A stretch of 64,000 bases of DNA from Squalus acanthias (GCA_030390025.1 CM059432.1:50718001-50782000); one strand, 5' to 3'; positions 34,701 to 60,984 are shown, counted from the stretch's first letter. The notes: a model not told the origin generated them from the sequence alone. A program made the numbers and translations.

Positions 34701-37700
34701 CCTTTCCTTTATGTACTAACTTGCCTACAAGGTATTTTCAGGTGTTAATATTTGATAAAATTATTGAAAAACACATTTACTATTTAAAAATGACTCAGTA
34801 TGCAGTTATCTTAACCTGTTTACTTACGCCATTCAGTTGAATAGGCAGGCAGGACACAACCAGAAATCAGAGGCTGAGGAACGTTTTGGAGACTCTGACA
34901 ACTATTTCCAATGGAAGGTGCAATGGTACAACTGAAAAGCAACATACCTCATCAGATTTTATCTTTTAGAGATGATGTACTGTACTGCAAAGGCTTGTAT
35001 TTTCAGCCAGTGGTAAAGGTGGAAAACTCCACTCCCACTCAATTCTTTAATTTCACCCTATTGACAATATTTAAAAAATACTATTCTATTGATGGCTGCC
35101 TAATACTCAAAGTTAAATTGAGACAACTTATTTTCTCTGCAGAAGTGCAGAACATGCAAAATCCACTTAAGAAAATAATAACCTACTGTCCACACTCGGC
35201 TCTTTGTTTGGCCCCAGTAAGAGCTGTGCAAGCTAAAATAGGAGTTCTGATCCATTGTGGACAGGCCTCCAGCTTTCTCCAATGCAAGCTATCTATTTCG
35301 ATCAGTACAAAACTAAGCAGGAGAGTGGGGTTGACTCAGGGAAGTCACAGAGCAGTAGACAAATGTCCAGGACCATCAGATAGGAGGCTGGGTGGAGAAG
35401 CAGTAGGGAAGGTGGAGACCGAGGAGAAGTCCTCCCAGTGAGGCTGGTGACAATGAGGTTGAAAACACATTGGGCCGGATTTTCCGATCGGAGGCTTCCT
35501 GCGTGCGGATGCCTCCGATCGGGAAAAATCTACGCACTTACCTGCTGGCTCCATAGGTCCCGAGACTTCCGATCCTGGGCCTCTCCTGGTCCGCGTGCGC
35601 AGAGGCCCAGGTATCCCAGGGGCGCAGGCGGTTCGCAAACGTCCCTGGGATCACGTGGGCCATGGGGAACCAATCAACGAAGGGACTCCCCATTCATACT
35701 TTTGACAGGTCTCTCCGCATAGATCTGTCAAAAGTATGAATGGGGATCACATTTAAAAACAGAGTTAAACATTAAATAATTTTTTTTTAAATCACGTATT
35801 TAAAATTAGTTAAAATTACATTAAATTAAATATTTTAAACAAAAATTTAATTTTTTGAAAAAAATAATTAAAGTTTTTTACAGGGCTAAAAATAAACTTA
35901 CCTTTTTTAAAAAGTATTTTTAAATTATAAATGAGCGAAAAAAATAATTTTTTAAAACTCTTATGCTGGTAAAAGCAGGCCTTACGCATGCTTCTACCAG
36001 GCGTAAGATATTTAAAGGTTTTCAGCAGGCGGAGGTTGTGCAGAAAGCGGAACTCCCTGCCTGCGGAGGCCCTTCTCCCAGACAGATTGGAAGTGCCGGG
36101 TTTTAGCGCATGCGCTTCGCATACCTGAAACCGGCACTTGCGAGGCCCCTACGGGTGCTTACACACCTCGTACGTACCCGTGGAGGTCGAAGTATCTGGC
36201 CCAATAGTAGGCATTACAGCATTAAGTTACCAATAACTGCTGTTTTTTCATGTTTGGTGGGTTACTGTGTAGAGTTAAACAGCAAACTGTAATGGCAGTA
36301 GAAAGGGACCTCAATGTTTTTCCTAGTAACGCCAATTGGTTCACTATCTAGTGTAAAGAACAGATCAGAAAGGATAATTGAATTATTTCCTTAACACGTT
36401 ATTGGCTTATTGCTTTTACTGTAGAAAAACAGCCAATCGGAAAATTGGGAATAAAGCCTACATTGAATCAATCAGAATGCTCCTGTATGAGGCTTCAGAA
36501 AGACAAAAATTAAATTGATAAACTCCCTATGCATTTATTTAAGTTTAATGGCCGTTTAGCAGAGTACTCCTTCTGTTGGACGTTTTAACCAATTAATATA
36601 CGACCCCACATGAAAAATTTGATGAAGCTTTTTAGTTTTTAACATTTTACTCCAACTATTGTAGCCTGGAAACTAACCCTTAAAATACTATATAGATCAA
36701 ACTAACCTGTTCACAAACCTTAATATCCATTGTTACAATTTTTGAGCAATGCTTTTTATGTTAACATTTAAAATAGAAACACCCTATGTTAACATTTGAA
36801 GACTCAGTACGTAATATGTAAACATTTATAATGAGAATCTTCCTGTCATGCTGTAGTTGCAGATATCCCACCAGTGGTGGCGCTGTGGGCCAAGGCATCT
36901 CGCTCCATCGCCATTTTATTTTGTTTCTTTCCAAAACCAAGACGCAGCACATCATTGGGCTGGTACCTGCTGCCTTCTATATAGTAGTCCCGGCCTGCCA
37001 TTCGTCATCCCCACTCGCCTCCTGACCCATTATGGTGATCTAGCATTGGGCCCCAGCTTGCCTGCCCTCTTGTCCATCGCCTTCCACGATCCCAATCACG
37101 TGCTACCCGAGGCCAGCCCTGTCATTTTCACTGCTAAACCAGCACCTCAGTCCTCAAACTGTAATGCTGCTTATATATAAAACCTATAATATTAAAAACA
37201 TACATCTGCATAAACTTTGTCAACTTTTTCCATTATTAATTCTCATGTCCACATTTATAATGGAAACTACCTATCTAAACTTATCACACTGTAATTACAC
37301 CCTTCTGCCAATAGTGTCATCCTAGCACCTGTTTTGTATTTATCAGTTCTTCAGTCTGTACTCCAGAGAAACGCCTATGTTCCAACTAACTCTATGGCCG
37401 TGATTTTGCGTTCGGTGGCGGGATGGGTGCGTGTCAGCTGGTTTCCAGGTTCTGGTCACGCCCCCAGCTGCCTCCACTCCACAGATGTGAGTTTCCCTTG
37501 ATTGACCTTGTTAAGCGGGCTTAACGGCCAATTAACAGGAAGCGGGTCATAGAAACATAGAAGATAGGAGCAGGAGTAGGCCATTCGGCCCCTCGAGCCT
37601 GCTCCGCCATTCAATGCGATCATGGCTGATCATCCAAATTCAGTACCCTGTCCCTGCTTTCTCCCCATATCCCTTGGTCCCTTTAGCCTTAAGAAATATA

Positions 37701-40700
37701 TCTAACTCCTTCTTGAATATATTTAATGAATTGGCCTCAACTGCCTTCTGTGGTAGAGAATTCCACAGGTTCACCACTCTCTGGGTGAAGAAATTCCTCC
37801 TCATCTCAGTCCTAAATGGCTTACCCCTTATCCTTAGACTGTGACCTCTGGTTCTGGACTCCCCCGCCATCGGGAACATCCTTCCTGCATCTAGTCTGTC
37901 TAGTCCTGTTAGAATTTTATAAGTTTCAATGAGATCCCCTCTCATTCTTCTAAACTCTAGCGAATATAAGCCTAATCGACCCAATCTCTCTTCATACTTC
38001 ATTCCTGCCATCCCAGGTATCAGCCTGGTGAATCTTCGCTGCACTTCCTCCATGGCAAGAACATTCTTTCTCAGATAAGGCGACCAAAACTGCACACAAT
38101 ACTCAAGGTGTGGTCTCACCAAGGCCCTGTACAACTGCAGCAAGACATCCTTGCTCCTGTACTCGAATCCTCTCGCTATGAAGGCCAACATACCATTTGC
38201 CTTCTTCACCGCCTGCTGCACCTGCATACTTACCTTCAGCGACTGGTGCACAAGGACACCCAGGTCTCGTTGCACTTCCCCTTTTCCCAATCTATTGCCG
38301 TTCAGATAATAATCTGTCTTCCTGTTTTTGCCACCAAAGTGGATAACCTCGCATTTATCCACATTATACTGCATCTGCCATGCATCTGCCCAATCACCCA
38401 ACCTGTCCAAATCATACTGGAGTTTCTCTGCATCCTCCTCACAGCACACACGACACAGCTTTGTGTCGTCTGCAAACTTGGAGATATTACATCTAGTTCC
38501 CTCGTCTAGATCATTAATGGGTCTCATGACGTCATTTGATGATGCGTCATCTGCCAGTTTCCTTAAAGGGACCATGCACAATTTTATTTTGACAGTTGAT
38601 TTCTCAGTGTTTGACAGCATTGAGGTTCTGAAAACACTGACAATCACTGCACAAAGGTGAACTCTTGCACCCAGGCACTCCAATGACTCCCTCCATATGC
38701 TGGAATAGATGGCAGCTGCAGGTGAGATGACAGAAGCGATCTGTCACTGGCGAGAGAGGTTCTCCCAATGAGGTGACACTGGACATATAGTTGATTTAAA
38801 AACTTGTAAGATAAAGAAATCTGTTTATGTTTTAAAAATGCAGTAACCAACATTTTCTTTGCTCCAAAACTCACCATGTGCAACATTGCATCCTTCACAC
38901 CACTTCTGCAGCTGTCATGTTTTCACAAACATTACACCAGACTCACAACACGCCACACTTACCTGGCGTGGTGTCCGGACGTCATGAAACCCATCCTAGA
39001 AGCGGGAAAATTGAAAAACAGGCTGAACACTACTGACAAGTACCTGTTAATAGGCAGGTAATTGCCTTTAATCCGTTTCCTGCCGCTAGGTGTCGGGTCC
39101 ATTCGCAAATCGGGGACCCGACACTTGGGAAGGCTGTTTGGAGGCGGGTTGACAGCGGGTTCGTGGCCCGCCGTCAATCAATAGGACTTTAACCTCTGAC
39201 CCGCCTCTCTGAGCGCTGGCAAAATCACGGCCTACATCTCTACTTCCCAAACTGACTGTACCTTTTTTAAAGTAAAAGGACAATATCTATTTAAATAGAT
39301 TTACACAACAATGCCCTTGTTATTGGTGCATTGATATTTAATGTAGTGAGTTATTGCAATTCTGTAGTTAACTGCAATCTAGTGTACCATTAACATTTTT
39401 AAATATTCTCACTGCTTCACTTCTTGTTGAACAAAGTACACTGTATTTGCATCAATAAATCTACCACTGCAATAATTGACAAATTTACAGAGGAGTTACA
39501 AAGTATTTAACTTCTAAAAGTAATCACCCATAGGATAGGGATAATCACCAGCAACAGGGGCTTACCTTGGCTGAGGAGGTATAGCAAGAGAGTTGGGAGA
39601 AAGGTGTGCTAAAAGACACAATTCAAAGTAAAATTAAAACATGTTCTCCTAAAGCTCTATTTGCAAATATCACTTTTACAATTCTCTTCCAAGTCATGCC
39701 TTTTTTTTGTACTTTAACAGACTTTAAAGATTTTGCATTCCAAATTTTTTCCTCAACAAAATAAAGAAGTTGTAAGTTATTCAAATTAATTAAAGTGAAT
39801 GGGAAGCGATTTCCAGGCTTTAGCACATGAAAAGTGCCTGCTTACCAGCGCTTTATTCCAAGAAGTAGTCACTTCTTTCTTACTCAACATATCTATATTA
39901 AAAATCTTGTCTTTGCATGCACTCTCTCTCTCTCCAGAAAACCATACTTCATATTAAAAATCCTTATGTCCACATTTATATTAGAAACTGCCTATGTAAA
40001 CTAGTCATGCTATAATTGCACCCTCCTTGTCAGTGGTCTGCCAGCATAGGCAGTTTCCATTACAAATGTGGACAGCGGAATTTGTAATGGAAACATAAAA
40101 ATAAGGATGGGACGTATGATGTTAAAATGGGGTCTGAATTATGTCTGAACGCTTTGCTCCAATTATCCCACACCCTTTAACCTTGCTTCACCCGAAGATT
40201 ACACTTGGTCTTTATTCACTGTGTGCAATGGCACTGGAAAGCAACTAATTCCAATTATAAATACACTAAAAATGTTCCCCATTTCATTAAAGAAACTTGT
40301 GTTCCTGTTAGATATATCATTAATGACATAGTTACATCAAGAACAACAATCTATAAAAGTGAAATTCAAAATGGTGGCATGCCACAATGTGCAAAGTGGA
40401 GTTCCTGAACTTTGCACTGCCTTTGGGAAGGGGCTAAGTGGAAGTTTGGTGTTTTCCCACAGGGATGGGGGAAAAAAGATAAAAGGGAAAATTTATTCCT
40501 AGACTGGTCATATATCCTTTTTTCTTCAGAGAAGCAGTAAGGTCTGGGAGCAGACTGCCTTTCCTCTCAGCCATTGCTGGTGCAAAGTATGGGAAGACCA
40601 GTGAAGGGAAGAAAATAAACTAAAACAAAAAACTGAAATTTAAAAAAGGTGGAGACAATGGATTTTGCTAAATCTTTTAATATAAAAATGTAAAATGTAC

Positions 40701-43700
40701 CGACAGTAAATTGATACTTTACCTTGCGAAAGAGCAATTGGGGTTGGATTATTTAAGCAATTTATAAATGATGTTCTTATATCTTCAATAAGACCCACCA
40801 AATGCGATGCTGGCTAAAGAAAGCAGAACCATCCAGTAAACAATAAATAACAATGAAAACCCTTATTGCCTAGACCTTGAACTTTGAATTTTTACTTCAC
40901 AGCAATTACTTTACTGCACCTTTCCTCAACCCAAGTCAAAATTGTATTTTAAATTTTCCCATTTAAAAACACACTCTTAAACTATCCTCACACCACCTTT
41001 GGAATAAAATATTTATAAAATTCCATAATAATCCTATTCTACTACTGCTCTTGCATAGCACTTTCACTCTTGTATTCTATTGCACTTGGAGAAACTCAAA
41101 TATATCTTGAACAAAAAAGTATCTATTTGGTTGTCATTAAAACAGCTTTACAGTGAAAAAAAACAGTGGCAGACTTTTCTTTAACATCATTTGATATATA
41201 TTTGGTGGGACAAATTAGCTGGCCTGGTATTTTTATTGTACATGGAGATACACAAAGATTAAAAAACACCACTGTGTTCTGGGGAGGGTGAGAGGGAGAG
41301 ATTGATTCTGATTTAGCAAGTGTTTTCATCACAAATGAAATTACTGGATCATACCTTAAAACGTTTGCCACAACCCTTATAAAATATACTGATTAGGTTG
41401 TGAAGACATTTGAAAGTAGCTGCTATGAGGACCAGTGTAATGTATGTTCCTGCAGCAATCCCACAGCTATCAATATGTGTACAATTGAGAACTAAATCCA
41501 ATGTTACACCCACTGGGATGGGAAAAAATTCACTTCTACTCAATTTCTATGTTTAAAAACATTACAACAGGTGAATGTACAATTTAAAAAACCTGATACT
41601 TCATTATTTTAAACACATTCTTAAACTAGTATCACACCACCTTTGCAACGCAATGTTTATAATATAATTATAAATGTCACTTTGGCATAATTTGACATGG
41701 TCTGATCATTGAATAATATATCTGATATGTGCTTAGTGAGTATCCTCTACCAATTCTCATGTTCAAAAAGGACTAGGTTAGACATTCTACTAGAAACTTG
41801 GTTAAGTTAAATATACTATTGCTATATTCAATAACTTATGTGCTATTGTATTCAAGTTATCAAGTAACATACAGTCTCAGGTCAGAATTGTTGTGTTTAA
41901 ATTTGCCAAAACCAGAGCATTTCAAACATCCATCGATTCATCTCATTACTTTGAGAAGAATCGTCTTTACTGAGCTTTGGCTTTTGCTGTATGAACAAAA
42001 TTATAACATGTATTCTTGCTTACGTATTTCCAGTTGCATAAATAACTTGAAGACATCATGCCGGTGTTATCGATATGAATTCCAGGATTTCGGCACGGAA
42101 TTGGTAGCCCCTTCACAAAACATTTTGGTGGATTCAGGGGGTGTGCGTTATGCAACCAGATGCTTACTGGAACATTATAAATTAGGCCTGAATATAAACA
42201 CATTTGCACATTGTTAAAAAAAATAGTAAAATTTGTGAGATCCATCCATGCCTGGGGGTATCTGGTTTTATCTCTTTGGCTCTAAATTTAAAGGTTTTTT
42301 TAAACTTACATAAAACATTTGTTTTCCATTCTTTCTTGTTTATTCAACATGATTCACTAACCTGACCCACAGAGGAGCCACAAAACATAAGACTTGTGAG
42401 TTAATATTGGGTATGGTAGGATTGTGGTTATGTTACTGGACTAGTAATCCAGAGGCCTAGACTAATAAACCGGAGGCGCGAGTTCAAAATCCCACCACGG
42501 CAGCTGGGGAATTTAAATTCAATTAAATAAATCTGGAATTAAAATGTTTGTATCAGTAATGGTGACCACGAAACTACCGGATTGTTGTAAAACCCATCTG
42601 GTTCACTAATGTCCACAGGGAAGGAAATCTGCCGTCCTTACCTGGTCTGGCCTATATGTGACTCCAGACCCACAGCAATGTGGTTGACTCTTAACTGCCC
42701 TCTGAAATGGCCGAGCAAACCACTCAGTTGTATTCAAGAAAGATGGCCCACCACCACCTTCTCGAGGGCAATTAGGGATGGGCAATAAATGCTGGCCTTG
42801 CCAGTGAGGTCCACATCCCATGAATGAAAAAAAAATTTTATTAAAGTTAATAGACTGTTTCTTGAATTGTTAATCTAGGGGGAAGGAACTGGGTGGTACA
42901 GTGGATTAGATATTAACCTTTCAACAGGGTTTGAATCCTGGCCAGATGAGTTGTGATAGAAAAGTCTCCCCAGACTGATGTCTGTACAGGGCATTTCACA
43001 ATTTGTCTTATTATACTTTTGTGAAGTGCCTTGGTACGTTTTCCTACATTAAACATGGTACATAAATGCAATTTTTGTTATTGTTGACATTAGTTTAGGG
43101 AATCTTAATTCAATTCCTTGTGGCACGCGCACAAACACAAAACTGCCCAAATAAAGAGGTAATTGGCACTAACTACATTAGCAATCTCACTTAGAGGGAC
43201 TGGTGTGGGGAGTCGATAGCTGACCTTAGCATGTTTGATCTTCACACTGAATACCCAAAACTTAAAGGGGGAAAAATTTGGTTCCTTAGCGCCTCCCGTT
43301 AGCGCCCACGGGGCACAAAGCAACTAACGCCCGGGCACGGCGATATTTGCGGCACTCGCAAAATTGACCAGACATTTTGCGGCGGCGCTAAACACTACTG
43401 CTACGATCTCCTGCGCCCGCAGAGCGTGACGTCAGTCGAGTGTGCAACGCCCCGGTAGGGCCCCGGACCGGATATTGAGTGGCGCTCCCTGCCTTTCCGC
43501 CTGCCGCTAGCAACGACAGGTTGAGGGGAACGTTTTGCAGTCGGGAAAGGACTGGGGGAGCGCTATTTAAAGGCGGCCGCTCCCTGCCTTTTTTTGTCGG
43601 CGACATTTTTGCACCACGGATTCTGAGAGAGAGACTTCTGGAGAGGTTCAACGCTGTGTGAAGGAGTTTTGGGTACTGAGCAGCATGTTGCAGGTTCATT

Positions 43701-46700
43701 TTGATTTGACCTTCCTTGCATCGATTTAGAAGAGACTATGGGGGCTGCACGATGAGCACTTTCCCTGGGCCTCTCCATTGTTCTTTCCAGCAGAATTGAT
43801 GTACAGGTCTCTCCAGGCCGGGATTCAAGGCTGCAATGAGCAGGGTATGGCTGGAGAGCAAGGTCGACCCTCCCCTTTAAGAACTGGTTGGCGCCAGTGT
43901 GTCTGTGTTCCATTGCTAACTGACATCACATGAGCTTCGCCAGCGCTCTGAGGTAGCGCCTCGCTCCTCGGCGTTAGCGCCTCAAGAGAGGTGTGTAGCG
44001 CCTGATTTAGCGCTCCAATCACCTCCAGGGGCGATAGAAGCCAAGTTTGCAGTCGGAGGTGATAATTAGCGCCAGGCACTAAACTTTGCACCCGGCTGAT
44101 AATTGCGCCCCAAACAGGGCAATACCGAATTTCTCCCCCAAAGTGTTCCATTGTGTTCCATTCTCTACCAATAACAAAAAAAATTATACAGAAATCATTA
44201 ATAAGTAACTTTGTCAGCTTACTTCAATTGCACTGTACATTACTAAGGAGTTAGCAATCAACTACACAATTAAAGACTGGGGTTTATAGATTACTTCACA
44301 GCATATTGCTCTGGAGAAATTCCTCACCATCTCAATTTAATTACTGTTGAATATTAATGGTGAAAAAGGGAAATTTCTGAGAAAACAATTTGAGTAAGTT
44401 CTTGTTGAAATAGCCTACTTGTTCTTAAGAATCAAGTTGTTAAACCATCAATGAACTGTTCTTGTATTATAAGTAACTGTTCTAAAATCAATATTGCTTT
44501 GAAGGTTTTTCCTCGCACAAAACCTTTTCAGCCCCTCATCTGCACTGCCCTTTCTCGATAGGAAGGATAGAATCTCACCCACAAATAGCTCCATCGACAC
44601 CATGGCCAGAATTTTCCCGTTGCCAAGCGTGTGGGTTTGGGGGCGGGTTGGCAATAAAAATCCCAGAAATTGCGAGCGCGTCGGGAACCCACCGTCATCC
44701 CGCCACCTCACGCATTTAACTGAGGCGCGACACGGACCCGATCGGCAGAGGCGGGCGACCTCATTCAAGTCATTAACTGCTTATTGAGAGACCCTTAAGA
44801 GGGTTTTTAATGCCAGCTTTTGACCTTTACTGCAGGAGCACGGGATTCACGCAGCTCGGGTACCTCGCCTGTGAAGGGGAGTCGGTAGCTCAGTGCCCAT
44901 TGGCAAGTCCATTTATTGAGAGCTGGGAAAAGCACATAAATACTCCAACATTACACCTCATTACCTGCCTCATGGAAAGGCTCTTGCTCACTCCATTATG
45001 TCCACAGATTTAGGTGTCAGCAGTTTGCAGGTCATTTCTGAAACCTTGGAAGCCACTCTCACCACATTGCTACTCAGTATCATAACATTGAGGGATTGGC
45101 CCTCTGATCTCCAATTTACCTGCCATCTACTACATCAGCATGGGAGCCGTATATACTGTTTCACCTTGATCCTCAGAATCGGACCAAGCGGAGTCGCACC
45201 ACCAGCAGCAGCAGCAACCACAACAGCCTTCTCCTCACTGACCTGAGGAGGGGGGCACCACAGGGCTGCAGCGCGCCGGAGGAGATACCCCCAACACAGG
45301 GTATACAGGCAGAGGATGAGCTTCCTCAACATGACTGAGCAGCAGTGCGTCAGGAGGCTCAGGCTATGGCGTCAGGTTGTCGCAGACATTTGTAGCTTGC
45401 TGGAACAAGACCTGCTGCCCAGAGGTCCTGGTGGACACTCCTTACCAGTGACTTCAAAGTCACCACCGCCCTCAACTTCTTCGCCTCAGGCTCCTTCCAG
45501 GGATCTGCAGCAGACACTTGCGGGATCTCGCAGTCAGCCGCCCACAGATGCATCACCCAGGTGACCGATGCCATGTTTCACAAGTCAGCCAATTATATCA
45601 ACTTTGCCACTGATGAAGCCAGTGTTACTGAGCGGGCGCTCGGCTTTGCGGCTCTGGCTGACTTCCCACAGGTGCAGGCATCATCGACTGCACACATGTG
45701 GCCATGAAGCCACCTCCTCATCACCCAGGAGTGTTTGTGAACTGCAAGGGCTTCCACTACCTCAATTTGCAGCTCGTCTGCAACCATAAAAAGATAATCA
45801 TGCATGTGTGCGCCAGATTCCCTGGCAGTTGTCATAACTCTTTGGTGCTGCACTAGTCCACCCTCCCTCAGCTCTTCGCACCTCCAAACAGACTTACCGG
45901 CTGGCTGCTTGGAGACAAGGGCTATCCACTGAAGACGTGGCTGATGACTCACTTGAGGATGCCAAGTACTGAGGCTGAGAAGCATTATTATGACAGCCAC
46001 ATGTCCACCAGATGTGTCATAGAGCAGAAAATAGGCATGCTGAAGATGCGCTTCAGATGCCTTGACAGATCTGGAGTATCCCTTCAGTATGCACCAGCCA
46101 GGGTCTCCAGAATTATCATCGTTTGCTGCGCACTGCACAACAGAGCGCAGCAGCGAGGATTAGAGCTGCAGGATGAGCAAGGCACAAAGCACGCAGCCTC
46201 TTCAGAGGAGGAGGAGGAACCTGAGGTGGAGATGGCACCAGCAGTGGCGCACATTGCTGCCTGGGATGGCATCATCATGGCTAGATTTACTTATGGCTGC
46301 CACAATAAGTTACCACCCCCGCCCCCGCAACAACACCATAAAGCATCCCTACAACGAACAAGCCATTTTTCTCATCCAAACCCCCAGTGCTCGAGGTTAA
46401 GTAATGTCTCACCTTTCACTCCAAGTGACAAAGGTAGCAGGCAAAAATGGACAAGACCGGAAAATGGTGCAAAGAAATACATTTATCTATGTCATCAAAA
46501 GAACTGAAACTTAACACTAACATTTTTTCATACATCTACTTTTGCGTCTTTTTTCTTTTCAGAGTGCTTCTACGAGGTGCAATCCCTGTGGCTTCAGCAG
46601 AGGTAGAGACAGGCTGCTCACTATCCTTCTGTGACTGGTTAGACACTTTTGGCGGACTTCCTCTGGGCTTTGGAGCCTGTGATGGCCCCGCCAAAGTCTG

Positions 46701-49700
46701 CTGCTCCTGCAACTGTGCAGGGGCAGACTCGGCCATCGGGATCCGATGAAGAATGTGGGGCTCTGACTGAGGGGGAGGCAACGGGGGAGAAGTGGGAGAG
46801 CTTTGAGAAGAGTCCCCACTTCCATGTCCCCTCTCACCATCATCCCTCTCATGGGCCACCCGCACTTCCCTGCTAGCAAGGAGCTGGAGAGCACCTTGCT
46901 GCACAGCAGTGGGGCGATGGAGGCCCAAGTCTACATTTATATCCCTCCTAGAGATGAGGTCTATGAGCATCTGCCATCTATTGTCCACAGCTAACATGTG
47001 CTCATGTGACTGGCGCATTGGCTGCTCCATGGGAATTGGATAAGTACCCGAAGGAAAAAAGTTTGCAGGGCTATGGGGAAAGGGCAGGGGAGTGGGACTA
47101 GCTGAAGTGTTCTTGCAGTGAGCTGGCACGGGCTCGACAGGCCGAATGGCCTCCTTCTGTGCTGTAACCATTCTATGCAGGTGACCATCCTTTCCATGGA
47201 ACAGCACATCGTCGCCATCGCCTGCGAGATGGTGGTGCTCATTGTAGAGATGGGCTCCTCCATTCTTACACATTTGCAGACATCACAGCTGCAAAGGCTG
47301 CCAGAGCCTCTTGCAAATGTTGCTGCTTCTCCAAGATCACCCTCTTTCTCGATGGCCCCCGAGGCTCAGTGTCTGCATGCAGCTCAGCTGAGTTTGTTGC
47401 GTCCTGTGCTCTCCGGCGATGAGTCTCCACTGCTGTTCCTGTTAACACCATCTGCTCTTGCTTACTTGTGAAGTGTGAGACACCAGGTGACAACACTACT
47501 CTATCTCGCACAGGACCCACCGAGGTGTTCGTATCTGCGCTGGTGCTGGGTGCGCTTGGGGCTGCTGATGGTGCAGCCTCAGAGGCTGGAGGTTCCTCTG
47601 AGGAGTCATCTTCCTCCTCCAGCCGGATAGCTGGGGGGGGGTGGGGGGGGGGGGAGGCATTTTATGGACCTGTGGGAGAGTACAGAGATGAATTGGTAGC
47701 GCTTTAATAAGAATGGGTAATTTTTACCATTACGTACATGATGGCATTTCACTGGCTGCTGACATCAGTCACCATGAGTGAGCCCTGCGTGCTCTCACTG
47801 CCTCCACTGGAATATGCAGGGATGCATCAGAAAATCGGGGTGCCGCCCTCTGCCTTTGACTAGCCATCATTTATGGATTAGAGCAGTACTCAGACCTTTG
47901 TATTTCACCTTCCACACTCCTCTAGCAATCTTCAAATGAGGGCAAGGCTGCTTTAAATACTGGCGCTGGAAACGAGTCATTGATTACATCGTCAGACCCG
48001 CTCCATTTAATTGGGCCGGGAAACGCGCATGACTGCTTTAAGTGGGGCCATTAAGTTAAAGTCGCCCCGAAGAACGCACTGAGCAGAACATCGCGTTCCC
48101 GACCCGCACACACCTGACCCGACTCCACGGTAAAGATTCTGGCCCAGCAGTTCACCAGGAGGCTCAGTCCAGTGAAAGATAAAATCCAACTTCAACCTCA
48201 GCAGTGTTTCTCAGATAAAGTTTCCCAAGACTGGAAAAGCACATCCACGGAGGGAAGCCCGAATTTAACTCTTAGTCCAAATTGCCATCTATTACAGATC
48301 TAACACTCTAATGTAGCTACCATATTATGCTGTCTTACCACTGCATGGCACAGGAATAGTACCATTCAAATTAACCAGTTTATTTTTAACACCAGTTCCA
48401 TAACCTGGAAGGAAAAGGAAAATATATTTTCATTAAGTGGATTAAAGAAATTTATCAATCTACAATGATTTGACTCAGCTACTTTCACTCAGGCATATAG
48501 GGCCGGATTTTAACACCCAAAAACGAGTGGGTTGGGGTCGGGTCAGAGGTTAAAGTTTTAAAAATCTCAAAACCTGACCCCAACCCCCGCCCACTTCTGG
48601 GTTTAACGGAGGTGGGACAAGGGGCGGGCAGTCAACCTGCTCCCAGGAGGCGGGTTGGCAATTTAAATATTTTAATCAGGCTGGCAGCCTCTGATTTAAC
48701 CTGTTTTCAAGGTTTATCCCTGGCCTGCCAGATTTTGCAGGCCTCGGGGAACCCGGCAGCTAAAGGGAGGCGAGGACTGCTTCAGGGAGAAGGTAAGTGC
48801 CTTTACAGCACTGCTTATGGGCCAGGAGGAGCAGGATTGCTTCCTCCCGGCCCCCCAAGTCCACCTCCCATACAAAGACCCCCGGGGTCAGGGATCTGAC
48901 CCCCCGGGGTCATGGATCGGATCTACCTGGACTTGCTGCTTACTCCAGAGTCCTCCCCGTCCGAATGGAAGCCAAGTCTGTCAATCAGGCTGACTTCCAG
49001 GTGGGGAACCAGTCAAGGACAAAAGACACACGCTAACCTGGACTTCCGGGTTTACCGTTCGAAACACTGCGCCCCCGCCTACATAACCCGCCCCTGTTAA
49101 TATCCAGGCCATATACTCTAATATCAGAGAATTATATATAACAATGTTAGAGGATAAACTGTTTTACATAGGATTACATAGGATATACGGCACAGAAACA
49201 TATCCCTTGTAAAATGGAATATATCAGGGCCACTGATTTATGATTGTGATGTCAAATTGTATTTTCATTATAGAGTACTGTCAGTGTGTTTGTGGTATTT
49301 TCAGGCTCAAATGTCGTGATTGTGCACATATTTACTCAATCTGCAGTTTGATAAGGAGTGGATTATATGGTGTAATGGAGATGGCGATGGTTTAATTACA
49401 TTAGGGCTCACATTTTTGAATGCTCTGCTAGCCAGCCTCTCTGCCTCAAAAGCTTCAACTTCCTCAAAACAGTGTAGCTTGCAACTTCACCCAAGCAAAG
49501 TTCTGCACTCGTATTACATAGAACATACGGCACAGAAACAGGCCATTCGGCCCAACCAGTCTATGCCGGCGTTTAAGCTCCACTCGAGCCTCCTCCCGTC
49601 TTTCCTCATATAACTCTATCAGCATAACCCTCTATTCCCTTCTCCCTCATATGTTTGTCTAATTGCCCCTTAAATGCATCTATACTATTTGCTTCAACCA

Positions 49701-52700
49701 CTCCCCGTGGGAGCGAGTTCCACATTCTCACCACTCTCTGGGTAAAGAAGTTTCTTCTGAATTCTCTATTTGATTTTCTAGTGACTATCTTATATTGATG
49801 GCCTCTAGTTTTGCTCTTCCCCACAAGTGGAAACACTCTCTCTGTATCTACTCTTTCATGATTTTTAAGACCTCTATTAGGTCACCCCTCAGCCTTCTCT
49901 TTTCAAGAGAAAAGAGACCCAGCCTGTTCATCCTTTCTTAATAGGTATACCCTCGCATTTCTGGTATCATCCTTGTAAATCTTCTCTGCACCCTCTCTAG
50001 TGCCTCCACATCCTTTTTAGAATATGGTGACCAGAATTGCAGACAGTACTTCAAGTGTAGTCTAACAAGGGTTTGATACAAGTTTAGCATAACTTCACTA
50101 CTTTTCAATTCTATCCCTCTAGAAATAAACCTTAGTGCTTGGTTTGCTTTTTTTATGGCCTTGTTAACCTGTGTCGATACTTTTAGTGATTTGTGTATTT
50201 GTACTCCTAGATCCCTTTGTTCCTCTACCCCATTTAGATTCTTATTTTCCAAGTAATATGTGACCTCCCTATTTTTCTTACCAAAATGTAATACCTCGTA
50301 TTTATCTGTGTTGAATTTCATTTGCCAATTATATGCCCATTCTGCAAGTTTATTAATGTCTTCTTGTAATTTGTTGCAGTCCTCCTCAGTATTGGCTTTC
50401 CCCTCCAATTTGGTGTCGTCCGCAAATTTAGAAATTGTGTTTTTGATTCCAAGGTCGAAATCATTAATATAAATCGTGAACAAGAGTGGTCCCAGCACTG
50501 ATCCTTGTGGAACACCACTTCCCACCTTCTGCCACTCTGAATAGCTACCCTTTACTCCTACTCTCTGCTTTCTGTCTTGAATTGAGAGGTCGCACAACAC
50601 CAGGTTATAGTCCAACAGTTTTATTTGAAATCACAAGCTTTCGGAGCTGTCGATCGCCCCTTCCTCAGATCGACAGCTCCGAAAGCTTGTGATTTCAAAT
50701 AAAACTGTTGGACTATAACCTGGTGTTGTGCGACCTCTCAATTTTGTCCACCCCAGTCCAACACCGGCATCTCCGCATTCTGTCTTGAAGCCAGCTAGCT
50801 ATCCATTCAGCTACTTGTCCCGACTCCGCATTACCTGACCTTATTCATTAGTCTATTATGTGGAACCTTATCGAAGGCCTTTTGAAAATCTAGAAAAATT
50901 ACTGCATTACCCTTGTCTACTCTCTGTTAGCTCTTCAAAAAATTCAATTAGGTTGGTCAAGCAAGACTTTCCCTTTTGAAATCCATGCTGACTATTTTTT
51001 ATTATATTTTTTGTTTCTAGATGTTCTTCTATTTTCTCCTTTAGTAGGGATTCCATTATTTTTCCTACCATCGATGTTAAGATGACTGGCCTATAGTTCC
51101 CAGGACATGTTCTATCTCCCTTCATAAAGATAGGTATTACGTTAGCTATCCGCCAGTCCTCTGTCACTACACCTTTTTCTAACGAATTACTAAATATGTA
51201 TAGTAATGCCTCTGCTATTTCTTCCCTAGAATCTTTTAAAATGCACGGATGTAATCCATCTGGATCAGGGGTTTTATCCTCTTTGAGTTTCATTAGTTTA
51301 TTTAGTATATCTCCTCGTTTTATTTTAAATGCAGTTAACTCATTACTAATCTCATCATCCAATGTCATCTCCACCTGTTCTATCTCCCTGGTAAATACTG
51401 AAGCAAAATAATTATTTAATATTTCTGCCATCTCTCTATTGCTGCCTGTGGTATTATCCTCTCCATCCCGACCTTTCTTTTTTTTATTGATGTGCCTGTA
51501 AATTATTTTACTATTTTGTTTGATGTTCCTTGATAATTTAATTTCATAGTTCCTCTTTGCCTTCCTAATTGTTTTTTGACTTCTCTCCTAATCCCTTCAT
51601 ATTCTCCCTTATCATGCTGCTGTCCATGTACTTAATGTATACCTCTTTCCTTACCCTCAATTTTTCCCTTATGGCTTTATTCATCCATGGTGTCTCATTA
51701 GTGTTTAGCTTGTTCTTGTTTATTAGCGGAATATATTTTTCCTGGACTCTGTTGAACATCATTTTAAATGTTTCCCATTGCTGTTCTACATCATTGTTTG
51801 ACAATACTGTTGTCTATTTTATTTTCCCCAAGTTCTATTCTCAGCCCCATAAAATCAGCTTTTCTCCAATCTATTACCCTGGTCTTTGTCATACCTATGT
51901 CCTTCTCAATTATTATCTTAAAGCGTATTATATTATGGTCTCTATTGCCTAGATGTTCCCCTACTTTTACTTCTCTTATCTGCTCTAGTTCATTCCCCAT
52001 TACTAGATCCAATAGCGAATCCTCCCTTGTTGGGCTTTTTACATATTGGATTCACACTATCCTTTCCAAGATTCACTGGCACCCCATGACCTGGCAAGTT
52101 GACTCATCTTACATGTCCTCATCCCCACCCTACCTTAGTGATCTCCTCCTGCCTTACATGCTCACATACTTCACTTCTCCAACACTGTGCTTCTCCTTGT
52201 CTCCCATTCCTCCATCAGTGCCTACTCATTCAGTCATTATGCTCTTGCACTCTGAAACACTCTGCCCAGTTTCCTCCACCTTATCACTGTCCTTCCTGTT
52301 TTCAAAACTTCAAAACTCACTTTTACCATGTTTTTAATTCCTCCCAAATCTCCTTTTTCCCTTTGAAAGTAAAATGAAAGACTTGCATTGATATAGTGAC
52401 CTCAGGATGTCCCAAAGCGCATTACAGCCAATGAAGTCCTTTTTGACGTCTAGTCACTGTTGTAATGTAGGAAAGCAAATTTGTGCACAGCAAGGTCCCA
52501 CAAGCAGCAATGTGGTAATGACCAGTGATGTCTTCCTGCAACTGAGGAGTGCTACTGAAATGTAAGTTGTTGTTTTTGCCTCACCATACAGTATTGTATT
52601 TTCTTTTTAAACTCTCCAAAATTTGCACTCAGGAAAAAAACCCTGTATTTTACGCTAATGTTTTGAAACTTTTGAAACTAAATAAATATGGAGTTATGCA

Positions 52701-54599
52701 TTTTAATCATGTATAGGAGAACAATTAAATGTAATTTATCCATCTCTATGTAAACAGTAAACCATTACTTACAATAAAAGTCAAAACACACAGAGAGGTC
52801 TCTGTACATTGCATGTACATTGTTAAGTTCTTTCGCAACCTCTGCTGGATAAAGATATGAATACTGTGAAAGAAAAAGAGAGATCATTTGCAACATTGCA
52901 TATCATTACAAGGTCAAAACATAATTTCCTCTTACTGTTTAGTTTATCATTCCTAAATTTTTGAAAATCTACAAAAACAAACCTTATATAGTATATAATG
53001 TAAAATTTCATTCCAGAGGTTTTTTTTTTAAAATGGTGCTGGGAAGTGAAGCAGGTAAGGATGCTGCTCTTTGTCTTCTGGGAGGTGATGCTGAAATAAC
53101 CCAGACTGCTGAGATAAGCTTCCTCTCCCAGCTTCAAGGATCTGTTGTGAATGATATGGATAGCCTCAACCTTATTCCTAATGCATGTCAGTCCCCAACA
53201 TAAAACTGGTCATTATTACAAATGCTATGTTTGAAGCTGTGTCACTTTTAGGAATCTATTTGGTGCCCGAGAACAGCGTGGCCTGTTCCTCCTTTGATTG
53301 GTCTGTGGCAATCATATATTGAGGATTCCATTACTTTTCCAGTAACACGACTGGGCTGTGGGAACCACAGGGCAGGAACTTGCTGGATTTATTTATTTTT
53401 TCTAAATATAGGCAGCCACTCCTAATCCTAATCCAATCTATACTGAGTAACAGGTTCCCCTTTGCCTGGCATGATTCTCCATTTTCTAACTAGCCTACCT
53501 TCCTACTCAATCGCTTCCTCCCATCAGTGGTTGCAAGTCCCAATCTCCTTTTCTCCAAGTCTTGTTGCCAAAGTGAGCTCTTGTGCCACTGCCAGCCCAG
53601 ATATACCCTTACGCTGAAGTGCTACAGCTAAGTAATAGCTTCAGAGCACAGGATCTCTTATTTTCCCTTTAGCACTGGCTGGCTGTGCCACCTCCATGGA
53701 GGTGATTTTGCCAATGGGGAGCTTTTGGAGGCGGGACTCCCACTTGTCGGGTTTCAGTCCCGCCTCCATCAACTTCTGGCCAACCCACGCCATTTTCCCT
53801 TGATTGAGCTTGTTAAGCCCGCTCAGCGGGCTTAGCAGGCCAATTAAGGGAAAGCCAGTTGCAGAAAATGTCAACGTATGACGTTTCATCTGTCAAACAT
53901 TTTTGACAGATGAATTGTCATCGTTTGACAGCTCTGTGAAGCTGTCAAACAGTGACATTCTCTGTAGTTTGATGAGGTCTTGAATTCAAGACCTCATCAA
54001 CCTTCTTTCTTTTGCAGAAATGAGATGGTTGTTGCATCTGAGAATGCAACAGCCATCTCTCATCTCTACCGCGGAGGTGCGAGACTCTCCGCATACCCAC
54101 CGACTGAAGCCTGCAGGAAGAAACAAAGGTAAGTATACTTTTTCTAACGCTGTACACTTACCTCAGATACTCACCTCTCCACACTTGCACCCATCACTCA
54201 CCTCCACAGCACACTTTTGGACCCCTCTGACCCCCGCAGACCCACTATTTGCCTCGGTGACCCTGGCAGGTTTCGGAGCCTTCAGGAAGCCCGCACTTGT
54301 GTGGGCAAAATGGAGATAAGCCTATTTTCTGCCTGTTAACAGGCAGTTAAGTGGCTTTAATCCCTTCCCGCCTCCAAGGAGATGGGACCCGGCGCGGGAC
54401 GGCTACCCACCTCCTGGCAAGATAGCATGGAGGCGGGTTGGGCACCCGCCCCCAATTTCTGTCATTTCCCCCGACAATCCCGCCTCCAAACCCGCCTCCC
54501 CAGGGCTGGCAAAATCCAGCCCCATATTTCCTTCCATAAGAGGTGCCAAAGAGCCAAGCCTTGTCCTTACCTCGGTCAATAACATCTCCACAAATTTGT
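7679..54599 (-). CDS. Multi-exon gene span (partial): UEV + Ser/Pro linker + NID/RRM-like + HOIP(RNF31)-type RBR E3 ubiquitin ligase
   Basis: About 20 minus-strand exons with AG/GT boundaries and compatible phases; translations match, by eye and from memory, TSG101 UEV, RBM43/NMI-type RRM and RNF31 RBR. The join across the linker is inferred. Confidence 0.75.
8063..10495 (+). mobile_element. CR1 LINE 3' portion (8063-8627, tail resumes 10420-10495), interrupted by an antisense CR1
   Basis: [34 protein letters not shown]; non-coding tail continues after 10420. Confidence 0.8.
8628..10419 (-). mobile_element. Young 5'-truncated CR1 LINE with uninterrupted 570-aa RT ORF2 fragment
   Basis: ORF 8705..10417 with all RT motifs, FADDTK; (ctatgtt)n tail at 8628-8640. 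Confidence 0.97.
10496..10666 (+). mobile_element. CR1 LINE 3' tail fragment
   Basis: gggaatcaagggatatgggga...ggcggagcaggctcgaagggcc...cctgctcctatttcttatgtt. Confidence 0.8.
10876..10990 (-). CDS. Exon, IBR end and linker ([38 protein letters not shown])
   Basis: tttcctcag|TGG...TTAG|gtaact; 115 nt, phase 0->1; resembles HOIP WEEQHRGRSCEDFQNWKRMNDPEYQAQGLAMYLQENG. Confidence 0.95.
11104..11193 (-). CDS. Exon, IBR ([30 protein letters not shown])
   Basis: tctttcag|TGT...CCT|gtaagt; 90 nt; resembles HOIP CSFGFIYEREQLEATCPQCHQTFCVRCKRQ. Confidence 0.95.
12091..15042. mobile_element. Harbinger/PIF DNA transposon, internally deleted (Myb/SANT gene +, DDE transposase remnant -)
   Basis: 3-bp TSD TCA; TIRs GGGCTAGAAATTC / [27 protein letters not shown] (Myb/SANT); [36 protein letters not shown] (DDE_Tnp_4 type). 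Confidence 0.92.
12266..12510 (+). mobile_element. 5'-truncated Tx1/L1-type LINE 3' end inserted in the Harbinger
   Basis: 12-bp TSD tacactcaaagg (12254-12265, 12511-12522); peptide [17 protein letters not shown]...[12 protein letters not shown] resembles the Tx1 ORF2 C-terminus. Confidence 0.7.
15155..15352 (-). mobile_element. CR1 LINE 3' tail fragment
   Basis: ggaacaggagtaggccattc...gatcatggctgatc...aaaaatctatcaatctcag, shared with the other minus-strand CR1 tails. Confidence 0.75.
15481..15579 (-). CDS. Exon, RING1-IBR linker and IBR start ([33 protein letters not shown])
   Basis: acaattag|ATT...CAT|gtaaga; 99 nt, phase 0->0; resembles HOIP LFHKKLTEGVLMRDPKFLWCAQ. Confidence 0.93.
16552..17103. 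repeat. 37-bp minisatellite, about 15 copies (cacccaaacacaYtgcaccacacKcactgacacactt)
   Basis: Read directly; lies in the first intron of the Harbinger Myb gene. Confidence 0.95.
18838..18953. mobile_element. 116-bp hAT-type MITE inserted in the Harbinger transposase
   Basis: 8-bp TSD atcatgac; TIRs caatgttcccttta / taaagggagcattg. Confidence 0.85.
20299..20481 (-). CDS. Exon, RING1 of HOIP-type RBR
   Basis: tttttgtag|ATT...CAG|gttgga; 183 nt; [31 protein letters not shown] resembles HOIP CECTICPDCFRQHFTIALKEKHITDMVCPAC. Confidence 0.95.
21620..22020 (+). mobile_element. Decayed CR1 RT fragment
   Basis: cagggttcagtactgggtccc (QGSVLGP), attaatgatctgg (INDL), tctgcaatgac remnants. Confidence 0.65.
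22361..22558 (-). CDS. Exon, HOIP-like pre-RING helical (UBA-like) segment and start of RING1 (ECPIC)
   Basis: aattcacag|CTA...AAG|gtatgg; 198 nt, phase 0->0; [11 protein letters not shown]...YLSHECPIC resembles HOIP YELGDVVEAVR...LLAQECAVC. Confidence 0.92.
22770..22933 (-). CDS. Exon, NID/RRM-like domain second part ([27 protein letters not shown]...CQTQ)
   Basis: tttattcag|TT...CAG|gtaggt; 164 nt, phase 1->0; completes the RRM-like fold (VAxxVxxxxxH...L.V). Confidence 0.88.
23767..24036 (-). CDS. Exon, NID/RRM-like domain of RBM43/NMI/IFI35/PARP14 type, first part
   Basis: ttcttgaag|GT...AAAG|gtacaa; 270 nt, phase 1->1; RRVHVLKIP...[25 protein letters not shown]...GSAVITFDD is the family signature (DKLxIxFQxxxNGGGEV). 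Confidence 0.9.
24797..24916 (-). CDS. Exon ([40 protein letters not shown])
   Basis: ttatttgatag|AT...CAAG|gtagca; 120 nt, phase 1->1; inside ORF 24627..24953. Confidence 0.72.
25108..25828. mobile_element. Non-autonomous Harbinger-type MITE (same family as 53698-54522)
   Basis: TSD CAT; TIRs gggctggatttt / aaagtcgcccc; collinear with 53698-54522. Confidence 0.85.
25846..26106. mobile_element. Penelope-like inverted pseudo-LTR hairpin with degenerate minimal hammerhead ribozyme cores
   Basis: About 130-bp imperfect inverted arms; centre CTGACGA-(stem II gtc/gac)-GAAACGTT on + and CTGATGA...GGAACGTT on -. Confidence 0.75.
26634..26792 (-). CDS. Linker exon ([16 protein letters not shown]...[10 protein letters not shown])
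   Basis: gtatttcag|AT...AAAG|gtacat; 159 nt, open only in phase 1->1. Confidence 0.7.
26867..26912 (-). CDS. Candidate linker exon ((FFL)[12 protein letters not shown])
   Basis: Donor ACTG|gtaatc; two possible acceptors (exon start 26912, phase 0, or 26902, phase 1); 74-nt intron to the next exon. Confidence 0.4.
27682..27706 (-). CDS. Candidate 25-nt linker micro-exon (RSPVELQM)
   Basis: Strong donor ATG|gtaagt; acceptor tactgttag is weak; phase 2->0. Confidence 0.3.
28948..28977 (-). CDS. Candidate 30-nt linker micro-exon
   Basis: ccctttccaacag|TTCTG...CATTA|gtaagt; open in phase 2 ([10 protein letters not shown]) and in phase 1; no homology support. Confidence 0.4.
29226..30124. mobile_element. 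Harbinger-type MITE with an internal minisatellite
   Basis: TSD GTT; TIRs ggcctggatattaac / gttacaatccagccc; inverted homologue at 48500-49110. Confidence 0.85.
29424..29712. repeat. G-rich minisatellite, about 44-45-bp unit, about 6.5 copies (ggtaggtccgattcccaaccccggggggaggtatccaatcccgg)
   Basis: Read directly; gives repetitive translations in the ORF track. Confidence 0.85.
30458..30527 (-). CDS. Candidate linker exon ([23 protein letters not shown])
   Basis: cttttacag|CC...CCAAG|gtaata; 70 nt, phase 1->2, open. Confidence 0.55.
30685..31045 (+). mobile_element. L2-type LINE 3' end
   Basis: gccttcagc...cctaagctctggaa (AFS...PKLW), cttaaaacc...ctcttt, tgtgaagcaccttggg...aggtgctatataaatgcaagttgttgtt tail. 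Confidence 0.7.
31181..34210 (-). mobile_element. CR1 LINE, near-complete ORF2 (APE + RT), frameshifted
   Basis: ORFs 33008..33925 (YRPP, GDFN, SDH), 32016..32937, 31254..31950 (FADDTK, WNSL). Confidence 0.95.
34240..34605 (+). mobile_element. Deu-domain SINE (SacSINE1/AmnSINE-like)
   Basis: B-box-like gggttcaagtccc; ttcagatgagatgttaaa...aaagatcacatggcgctatttgaag...gtcctggtcaatt core recalled for DeuSINEs. Confidence 0.7.
34828..34931 (-). CDS. Candidate linker exon ([35 protein letters not shown])
   Basis: gcttttcag|T...TGGC|gtaagt; 104 nt, open in phase 2->1, compatible with its neighbours. Confidence 0.6.
35472..36202. mobile_element. Harbinger-type MITE with an AT-rich core and internal hairpin
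   Basis: TIRs gggccggatttt / agtatctggccc; flanks att/aat; hairpin at 35687-35746. Confidence 0.7.
37396..39232. mobile_element. Harbinger-type MITE split by a CR1 insertion
   Basis: TIRs ggccgtgattttgc / gcaaaatcacggcc; flanks tat/tac; shares blocks with 25108-25828. Confidence 0.8.
37548..38517 (-). mobile_element. Young 5'-truncated CR1 LINE (near-identical to 62110-64000)
   Basis: ORF 37640..38683 from INDLDEG to EKAGTGY; same 3' UTR as the 62110 copy. Confidence 0.95.
39566..39608 (-). CDS. Candidate linker exon ([14 protein letters not shown])
   Basis: gtcttttag|CA...CCAAG|gtaagc; 43 nt, phase 1->2, open, Pro/Ser-rich. Confidence 0.55.
40723..40813 (-). CDS. Exon, UEV C-terminal helix ([30 protein letters not shown])
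   Basis: ttctttag|CCA...CAAG|gtaaag; 91 nt, phase 0->1; matches TSG101 PQSDLLGLIQVM. Confidence 0.88.
42024..42187 (-). CDS. Exon, UEV core ([55 protein letters not shown])
   Basis: atattcag|GC...TAC|gtaagc; 164 nt, phase 1->0; inside ORF 41967..42245; matches TSG101 [23 protein letters not shown]...HVDANGKIYLPYLHEWKH. Confidence 0.95.
42409..42835 (+). mobile_element. tRNA-derived SINE with a LINE-derived 3' tail
   Basis: A/B-box-like tgtggttatgtt...gagttcaaaatccc; tail gggcaattagggatgggcaataaatgctggccttgccagtga...catcccatgaatgaaaaaaa as at 2290-2386. Confidence 0.78.
43267..44139. mobile_element. Non-autonomous Harbinger element related to 12091-15042
   Basis: TSD AAA; TIRs gggggaaaaattt / gaatttctccccc; tagcgcc subterminal repeats shared with 12091-15042. 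Confidence 0.85.
44604..48144. mobile_element. Harbinger/PIF transposon, decayed (transposase + about 45140-46290; Myb-gene remnant - about 46530-47870)
   Basis: TIRs ggccagaatttt / aagattctggcc; flanks cat/cag; [33 protein letters not shown] in shifted frames. Confidence 0.9.
47040..47178 (+). mobile_element. Short CR1 3' tail inserted in the Harbinger
   Basis: gcagggctatggggaaagggcagg...ggccgaatggcctccttctgtgctgtaaccattctatg. Confidence 0.65.
48339..48404 (-). CDS. Exon, UEV domain ([22 protein letters not shown])
   Basis: ccttccag|GT...AGTG|gtaaga; 66 nt, phase 1->1; matches TSG101 RELMNLTGTIPVPYRG. Confidence 0.92.
48500..49110. mobile_element. Harbinger-type MITE (inverted relative of 29226-30124, no minisatellite expansion)
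   Basis: TSD ATA; TIRs gggccggattttaac / gttaatatccaggcc. Confidence 0.85.
49514..52050 (-). mobile_element. CR1 LINE, 5'-truncated, same subfamily as 3254-6035
   Basis: ORFs 49606..52012; RT motifs; same 3' UTR. Confidence 0.95.
50582..50777. mobile_element. Penelope-like insertion: perfect 75-bp inverted repeat with a hammerhead core
   Basis: 12-bp TSD ttctgtcttgaa; arms 50581-50655 and 50668-50742; minus strand CTGAGGA-A-GGGGC..GCTCC-GAAAGCTT. Confidence 0.8.
52372..52525 (-). mobile_element. Deu-type SINE 3' fragment
   Basis: Reverse complement matches the 3' half of 34240-34605 (cattgctg..tgtgggacc..gctgtgcacaaat...gctttgggacatcctgag). Confidence 0.6.
52773..52863 (-). CDS. Exon, UEV domain ([30 protein letters not shown])
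   Basis: ctttcacag|TAT...TATT|gtaagt; 91 nt, phase 0->1; resembles TSG101 YKYRDLTVRETVNVITLYKDLKPVLDSY. Confidence 0.88.
53698..54522. mobile_element. Harbinger-type MITE (family of 25108-25828)
   Basis: TSD CAT; TIRs ggaggtgattttgcc / ggcaaaatccagccc. Confidence 0.85.
54571..54599 (-). CDS. Exon, UEV N-terminal helix ((D)KFVEMLLTE)
   Basis: tattttcag|ACAAA...GAG|gtaagg; 29 nt, phase 1->0, joins the next exon in frame; positioned like TSG101 ...LKKMVSK|. Confidence 0.6.
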
Positions 54600-60830: not shown

Positions 60831-60984
60831 ATAGTCACAAGGGTAGTCACTTGGATGTCTTATAGTGTTATTTAATATCGAGTGTCATCCTTTTGTGATG
60901 TAATTAAACAAAAGTGATGGCAAAGAGTTGATGTTCTGGCCTATGTGTTCTGGGAAATGGAAGTTCAAGAGTGAGGGCTCAGGG

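Follow-up and report, generated by a model that had tools for sequence, protein, structure and literature searches.

A HOIP-type RBR gene opening with a TSG101-like UEV domain in Squalus acanthias, and its relatives in fish and frogs

The locus and its gene model

The window, by which we mean the whole stretch of DNA analyzed, comprises 64,000 nt of the Squalus acanthias genome (GCA_030390025.1 CM059432.1:50718001-50782000); positions are counted from its first letter, and those outside it are given as G000:C8 coordinates. On the minus strand, a tblastn search of the window and flanking sequence, with orthologues as queries, yields a gene of 24 exons, with 23 AG/GT introns and an open frame of 917 amino acids. 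The domain order of the protein, as obtained from Pfam, AlphaFold, and structure matches, is UEV–disordered linker–NID–helices–RING1-IBR-RING2–LDD. The features are listed below from the 5′ end of the gene.

G000:C8:50793800-50793844 (11.8 kb past the window end), minus: exon 1, 45 nt; tblastn to residues 1-15 of the sawshark orthologue P0002 (80% identity), GT donor
52773..52863, minus: exon 2, 91 nt, UEV helices and strand 1; AG/GT ends, in frame, joint to exon 3 in a contig of run X4
48339..48404, minus: exon 3, 66 nt, beta-tongue CYGTG and C66 (= Y63); same length as exon 3 of TSG101 and UEVLD, joints in X4
42024..42187, minus: exon 4, 164 nt, UEV core with P98 (= M95) and S113 (= Y110); Pfam UEV at E 1.6e-10 from this exon alone, same length as exon 4 of TSG101 and UEVLD
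40723..40813, minus: exon 5, 91 nt, last UEV helix, with CLNNP in place of EPPVF; joints in X1, X2, and X4, the helix continuing in the shark model
24797..39608, minus: exons 6-11, disordered linker holding two short conserved motifs (SYxxELxxxGIxF in exon 10, an amphipathic helix in exon 11)
22770..24036, minus: exons 12-13, NMI/IFP35-type NID (RRM-like); Pfam NID in orthologues, NMI structure 21nh at E 1.1e-7
22361..22558, minus: exon 14, HOIP-like pre-RING1 helices and start of RING1; hhalign probability 98% to the HOIP pre-RING1 segment
7679..20481, minus: exons 15-19, RING1, IBR, and RING2 with catalytic C722/H724
Below window position 1, to about G000:C8:50711780, minus: exons 20-24, remainder of RING2 and LDD
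54571..54599, minus: 29-nt segment bounded by AG and GT and containing an in-frame ATG, probably no regular exon; no contig joint listed in four runs

The four UEV exons within the window (91, 66, 164, and 91 nt) had been recognized in a first-pass annotation made from the window alone; all have AG/GT ends, and the frame is kept across them. That annotation let the feature end at 54599, which does not stand, the segment at 54571-54599 being without a contig joint and the homologous first exon lying beyond the window. Splice joints were read in contigs of runs presumed to be RNA (a guess as to their nature), from two studies, at 100% likeness. The joints between exons 7 and 6 and between 6 and 5 are present in X1, X2, and X4, that between 5 and 4 in X1 and X4, and those between 4 and 3 and between 3 and 2 in X4. 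One X4 contig holds all five joints predicted for exons 2-7, with intron ends at every joint. Exon 4 is an exact piece within longer contigs of X1, X2, X7, and X4; in the X7 contigs none of the five exon 2-7 joints was seen at 100% likeness. The shark gene is intact and spliced. The open frame, the spliced contigs, and the invariance of the UEV relative to the linker in 10 sharks (see below) speak against an unexpressed pseudogene, which the first-pass annotation had kept in view.

In one X1 contig, exon 4 is joined to a donor within a high-copy intronic repeat (window 42186 to 42641, minus). This joint would represent a cryptic or alternative 5′ exon and would remove the first half of the UEV. 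The introns are filled with transposon copies bearing nuclease and Myb-like frames, which we take to be Harbinger-like, and with CR1-like LINE fragments (about 45250-47700, 12000-19000, and 59300-61900).

Kinship and exon structure of the UEV domain

Residues 17-134 of P0002, whose UEV is 86% identical to that of the window, align gap-free to residues 14-131 of human TSG101 (E 3e-27, offset 3). In four full-length shark and ray orthologues, Pfam gives a TSG101-type UEV (E 1e-22 to 6e-28), and Foldseek superposes the UEV on 1s1q (TSG101) with a TM of 0.88. A UEV of the acceptor-orienting MMS2/UBE2V type was rejected (E 0.8 vs. 3e-27 for TSG101), as was identity with the ESCRT-I subunit TSG101 itself: the coiled coil and steadiness box have no Pfam match, and the protein runs on into the NID and RBR.

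Three UEV loci were found in the shark genome, this gene and a UEVLD/TSG101 pair on C10. There the UEVLD exons measure 42/85/66/164/136 nt and those of TSG101 42/not found/66/164/127 nt, with a 500-N gap in the intron expected to hold TSG101 exon 2. The exons of 66 and 164 nt are equal in order to those of TSG101/UEVLD, and the positions of the three introns that border exons 3 and 4 match exactly; the first intron is two codons off the TSG101/UEVLD position. Since the intron phases (0,1,1,0,1) are all those of the genome's own TSG101 and UEVLD, and exon lengths are common as well, the UEV exons go back to a genomic duplication rather than to a retrocopy, as had been proposed from the TSG101 breakpoints. 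At sites diagnostic for TSG101 vs. UEVLD, the window sequence counts 10 vs. 3 and the coelacanth 11 vs. 11, and TSG101 is favored in most rows; in this unrooted comparison, the donor may be either gene. Among the 76 candidates returned, TSG101 itself does not occur, and no shorter UEV protein for rooting a TSG101/UEVLD tree was found at E 1e-10.

The gap-free alignment to human TSG101 bears out most substitutions first read by eye. In the tongue, V43-F44-N45-D46 is C46-Y47-G48-T49 (VFND to CYGT), and in the PTAP groove Y63 is C66 and M95 is P98. The binding residues are nevertheless not all changed: T58, V61, Y68, N69, P71, W75, and F88 are kept, next to the altered tongue, Y63, and M95. The EPPVF end has indeed lost its original letters, but it is not cut off, being replaced by CLNNP in the same exon. 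The E2 catalytic position is Ser, as stated (Y110 = S113), but the missing Cys is inherited, because TSG101 itself has Tyr there.

With TSG101 and UEVLD, the family shares the fold, the exon lengths, the phases, and the absence of the catalytic Cys, and its bony-fish members keep the groove residues. In contrast to TSG101 it has no ESCRT-I coiled coil or steadiness box, and in contrast to UEVLD no LDH domain; it departs from both in a tongue altered in all family orthologues and in a groove lost in cartilaginous fish and frogs.

A HOIP-type catalytic core

The UEV exons begin a 24-exon gene that encodes an RBR, so that the UEV does lie in cis to an RBR, as first supposed. The larger point, absent from the first-pass annotation, is that this RBR is a HOIP-type RBR-LDD. 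Its closest PDB match is the HOIP RBR (5edv, E 5e-86; Foldseek E 4e-29), and Pfam matches the IBR and the LDD that follows (PF18091). The AlphaFold model of the Heterodontus orthologue has confident separate domains (pTM 0.36), in which Foldseek recovers the HOIP RBR and the TSG101 UEV.

Every elasmobranch row (13/13) and every ray-finned row (78/78) has C722, H724, and R765, and D766 (= D936) is D in 78 of the 91 rows and N in 13. The HOIP residues concerned are presumably numbered H887, R935, and D936. The LDD motifs of frogs and coelacanth are altered; given these changes and D936N in 13 of the 91 rows, linkage specificity may drift. The catalytic Cys of HOIP is C885 (PMC3814767, accessible part).

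PUB, UBA_HOIP/UBA_RNF31, and the RanBP-type zinc finger (NZF) have no match in the 10 family proteins scanned; among HOIP-type proteins taken for contrast, UBA_HOIP matches in 5/5 and PUB in 4/5. Of the HOIP UBA region, the last helices alone, just before RING1, are retained (hhalign probability 98%). The exon-10 motif was considered as a UBA remnant and rejected (hhalign probability 1.2%). According to the accessible part of PMC3814767, the HOIP RBR-LDD can form free linear chains in isolation and by itself targets the N terminus of the acceptor ubiquitin, full-length HOIP requires UBA-UBL binding, and the RBR-LDD alone does not prime NEMO; substrates of the paralogue may therefore differ. 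Because PUB, NZF, and UBA are absent while the catalytic Cys/His and the LDD Arg are kept, the family protein is likely to be a LUBAC-independent ligase, with M1 chains as its predicted product. The retained pre-RING1 helices or the linker helix could still autoinhibit.

The family and its genomic setting

By sequence, the shark gene is the orthologue of zebrafish si:dkey-181m9.8, a HOIP paralogue that is already in the databases but uncharacterised. The family occurs in sharks, chimaera, bony fish, coelacanth, and frogs, its matches (the best 120 of 255, and the best 150 of 194 at E 1e-30) being named si:dkey-181m9.8, "RNF31," "lubel," or uncharacterised by automatic annotation. To our knowledge, the gene is absent from amniotes. 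A quick ML tree was built from 43 RBR-LDD rows chosen among the matches, with SH-aLRT as its sole support measure. In it, 19 family rows (elasmobranchs, chimaera, coelacanth, ray-finned fish, frogs) form one clade (SH-aLRT 100) and three gnathostome HOIPs a separate one (100); the vertebrate node is weak (80). Thirteen of 146 new representatives are nearer to the family than to HOIP, 12 of them from fish or frogs and one a borderline cephalopod. Frogs and most spiny-rayed fish have lost the NID. The UEV is incomplete or missing in several database isoforms, and 14 of the 121 proteins listed have no UEV match.

The canonical HOIP of the shark genome lies on a partly assembled 107-kb scaffold (C242), with UBA, NZF, and B-box present, and has two phase-0 introns in common with the window gene. 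The UBA exon occurs there twice around a gap, likely an assembly duplication. The IBR, RING2, and LDD exons were not found in 60 kb of C242, nor RING2/LDD elsewhere in the assembly. With HOIP/RNF31 the family has in common RING1-IBR-RING2-LDD, the catalytic Cys/His, the LDD Arg, the pre-RING1 helices, and the two intron positions; it differs in having no PUB, B-box, NZF, or UBA, in its N-terminal UEV and NID, and in its separate clade and locus. The 3′ end of the window gene is flanked by two genes, between 21 and 77 kb below window position 1: IMPA1, which is convergent, and a CHMP4 gene. In human, we take IMPA1/CHMP4C to be at 8q21 and RNF31/CHMP4A at 14q12; the IMPA1/CHMP4 neighborhood would fit an ohnologue pair with RNF31.

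A full-text literature search, thin on subscription journals, returned no description of a UEV-RBR-LDD protein or of a second HOIP, and one short supplement of PMC11768566 held no match. Mentions of fish "RNF31-like" (PMC12575339, PMC6723134; accessible parts) could concern either paralogue.

UEV surfaces across lineages

Residues were counted in 91 rows (13 elasmobranch, 78 ray-finned) of the 107 with a UEV match among the 121 listed; these rows are related by descent and not independent. Partial, aberrant, or duplicate-isoform rows were dropped (P0004, P0009, P0012, P0021, P0022, P0026, P0031, P0053, P0057, P0088, P0089, P0094, P0100, and P0106), and coelacanth and frogs were read apart. At position Y63, ray-finned fish have Y or F in 74/78 rows (Y 67, F 7), whereas all 13 elasmobranchs have C. 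Position M95 is M in 77/78 ray-finned rows vs. none of 13 elasmobranchs (P/H/L/V/A/G), and position P140 is P in 78/78 vs. 0/13 (N/I/R/S). At V141 there is L in 74/78 ray-finned rows and N/D in elasmobranchs, and at F142 F or Y in 78/78 (F 40, Y 38) vs. P/S/L. The coelacanth keeps M95, P140, V141, and Y142, with H at 63. In chimaera and two frogs the groove is also changed, each in its own way. Because ray-finned orthologues keep it, the groove was lost in cartilaginous fish; judged from these residues, it happened in chondrichthyans and, as a separate event, in frogs.

All elasmobranch rows (13/13) have S at the E2 catalytic position, where ray-finned fish have L, S, R, H, or others, so that the position carries no family-wide function. 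A Cys occupies it in one of the 78 ray-finned rows (P0082, Embiotoca). For ubiquitin we take the binding residues to be those of the tongue (V43-D46), W75, and F88. In the shark UEV, the tongue is replaced and variable, and W75 (invariant) and F88 are kept. The bony-fish tongue is also changed, N45 being mostly P and D46 mostly N, so that ubiquitin binding is doubtful in all lineages. The PTAP contacts are T58, Y63, Y68, N69, I70, T92, M95, V141, F142, and S143 (PMC7650771, accessible part). By that list, elasmobranchs have lost 5 of the 10 contacts that ray-finned fish retain, a share not significantly above the 12 of 45 at other sites (Fisher p 0.25). Grouped post hoc, Y63, 91-97, and 138-142 account for 11 of the 17 losses.

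At 10 positions, elasmobranchs alone have a fixed or near-fixed residue (C66, I70, S114, N140, and L142 among them); C66, I70, N140, and L142 are near old groove residues in sequence. In 10 sharks, 59/132 UEV sites are invariant (45%) vs. 17/88 in the linker (19%), that is, 2.4 times the linker's share, with 1/6 in the tongue and 3/9 in the groove loop. On a fixed topology, the UEV/RBR stem lengths are 0.43/0.15 in chondrichthyans, 0.94/0.20 in frogs, and 0.26/0.20 in ray-finned fish, so that the UEV stem is about three times, five times, and 1.3 times the RBR stem, respectively. In the gar model, the groove loop has a pLDDT of 87-90 and a C-terminal strand forms at 146-147. The shark (Heterodontus) model gives 70 and 47 there, low values that may reflect scarce shark rows in the alignment, and a longer helix in place of the strand; its UEV core is near or above 90.

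Since variation in the shark tongue is as high as in the disordered linker, the change of tongue and groove in the shark UEV is likely to be decay rather than rewiring. The proposal of rewired surfaces with a new specificity is not supported: the ray-finned orthologues retain the PTAP groove, and the shark tongue is variable. The shark UEV body is constrained where the tongue is not, and the 10 elasmobranch-specific sites may mark a new role.

Linker motifs and an upstream element

NPF is a ligand of EH domains. It occurs in the linker in 65/78 ray-finned rows (vs. a mean of 1.65 and a maximum of 6 in shuffles) and in 0/15 chondrichthyan proteins; gar and bowfin are also without it. SYxxELL-like motifs are present in the linker of 70/78 ray-finned rows. 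Exon 10 of the shark gene (window 26634-26792) holds the conserved SYxxELxxxGIxF, presumably clathrin-box-like in spiny-rayed fish, and exon 11 (window 24797-24916) an amphipathic helix, FxxLxLxxV, whose conservation extends from chimaera to frogs.

An ISRE-like element, GAAACCGAAA, lies 45 nt upstream of the ATG (G000:C8:50793889-50793898) in a CpG-rich stretch; noticed post hoc, it is one of two strict matches in 284 kb, with 28 under a looser pattern. Together with the NID, it hints at interferon control of the gene. None of 18 IRF matches is on C8, and the accessible main text of 10.1101/693333, on interferon-stimulated genes, does not mention the gene.

Discussion

We favor, with a probability of about 0.6, an intact HOIP paralogue that makes linear M1 chains without HOIL-1L/SHARPIN, and in which the UEV is a targeting module with a groove decayed in sharks. 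By exon shuffling, a HOIP duplicate, probably from the early vertebrate genome doubling, would have gained a TSG101/UEVLD UEV and an NMI-type NID in place of its original N-terminus. Because it has no UBA, autoinhibition and activation of the LUBAC type would both be absent; having no PUB, it would recruit neither OTULIN nor SPATA2-CYLD. The ancestral UEV would have been a tethered targeting module, with PTAP-groove residues that bony fish retain and sharks have lost, probably through decay. In bony fish, the groove and the linker NPF may place the ligase on P[TS]AP-bearing or endocytic membrane proteins. With both groove and NPF absent in sharks, the NID or the UEV body, which is still constrained, would have to provide the targeting there. 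A bolder version, which we think doubtful, makes the family a second linear-ubiquitin ligase of jawed vertebrates, LUBAC-independent, OTULIN-uncoupled, and interferon-inducible. The captured TSG101 UEV would serve it as bait, drawing in P[TS]AP late-domain proteins of host (ESCRT-0) or viral origin to be M1-marked at endosomal membranes; sharks and frogs would independently have dropped or re-aimed the bait, and amniotes would have lost the gene.

Decay is not the sole way to read the shark UEV. It could have been remodeled to a new binding surface on the chondrichthyan stem and then fixed, with which the long UEV stem followed by constraint, the 10 elasmobranch-specific sites, and the invariance of 45% vs. 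19% all agree. However, key substituted sites vary among sharks (six residues at the M95 position, a single invariant site in the tongue), chimaera and frogs altered the same region differently, and the fixed sites may merely repack the fold after the C-terminal strand loss seen in the model; on balance we find such a surface somewhat unlikely. The converse view, that the UEV exons are vestigial or unexpressed and often skipped, the ligase working without them, could draw on the X1 contig that joins exon 4 to the intronic repeat instead of exon 3 and on the proteins and isoforms without all or part of the UEV. It is hard to reconcile with exons 2-7 spliced in one X4 contig, a UEV that is whole in 13 elasmobranch rows and 2.4 times as invariant as the linker, and a core modeled at a pLDDT near or above 90, and we give it very little credence.

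The first-pass annotation had placed the UEV as a pseudo-E2 on RING1, as an autoinhibitor or orienting acceptor ubiquitin. An E2-type fold in cis to an RBR, the absent UBA autoinhibition module, which leaves room for another brake, and the retention of W75 and F88 in sharks are in keeping with this. But about 380 residues of disordered linker and NID separate the UEV from RING1, a long tether in the model (pTM 0.36); the position that we equate with the RING-binding Phe of E2s is unconserved (Q/L/K in sharks, Q/V/K/A in ray-finned fish); and the UEV resembles TSG101, not MMS2. Human TSG101 does bind and stimulate HOIP in cells, but the HOIP-binding part is 217-390 and not the UEV-containing 1-216 (PMC10336271, accessible part); a Rosetta-stone argument from this binding was rejected for that reason. 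Acceptor orientation is already provided for in HOIP, where the RBR-LDD alone targets the acceptor N terminus (PMC3814767, accessible part). Docking of this kind is improbable.

We know of no linear-chain maker in mammals other than LUBAC. If the favored reading, a paralogue making M1 chains by itself, is true, fish and frogs own a second source of such chains, without the docking domains for HOIL-1L/SHARPIN and OTULIN. Zebrafish LUBAC knockouts and fish "RNF31" expression data would then read differently, because databases often name the paralogue RNF31. The family would be a natural test of which HOIP parts govern regulation and targeting; the UEVs of bony fish, with the groove, and of sharks, without it, would make a convenient pair. 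Taken alone, the shark residue changes are of moderate interest and mark the loss of an ancestral groove more than a new specificity. In mammals, linear chains are credited to the LUBAC complex (PMC10336271, accessible part).

Several other proteins combine related parts. RNF14 (RWD-RBR) likewise couples an E2-like fold, to which its RWD is akin, to an RBR (atlas rows at 0.77), but has no LDD. Drosophila LUBEL makes M1 chains and does so without HOIL-1L/SHARPIN; it is orthologous to HOIP, has a UBA, and is not known to contain a UEV. NMI and IFP35 have one NID in common with the family, where it is single copy within a ligase. A further NID exon is present at G000:C8:34758637-34758795, 16 Mb away, and looks by eye nearer to the NID of this gene than do the other NID loci listed; it is a possible donor. 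Among frogs, the family member of Mantella (P0016) has repeated helix-RING1 units and no UEV match, and in the sponge Ephydatia (P0123) five RBR-like stretches occur in one protein.
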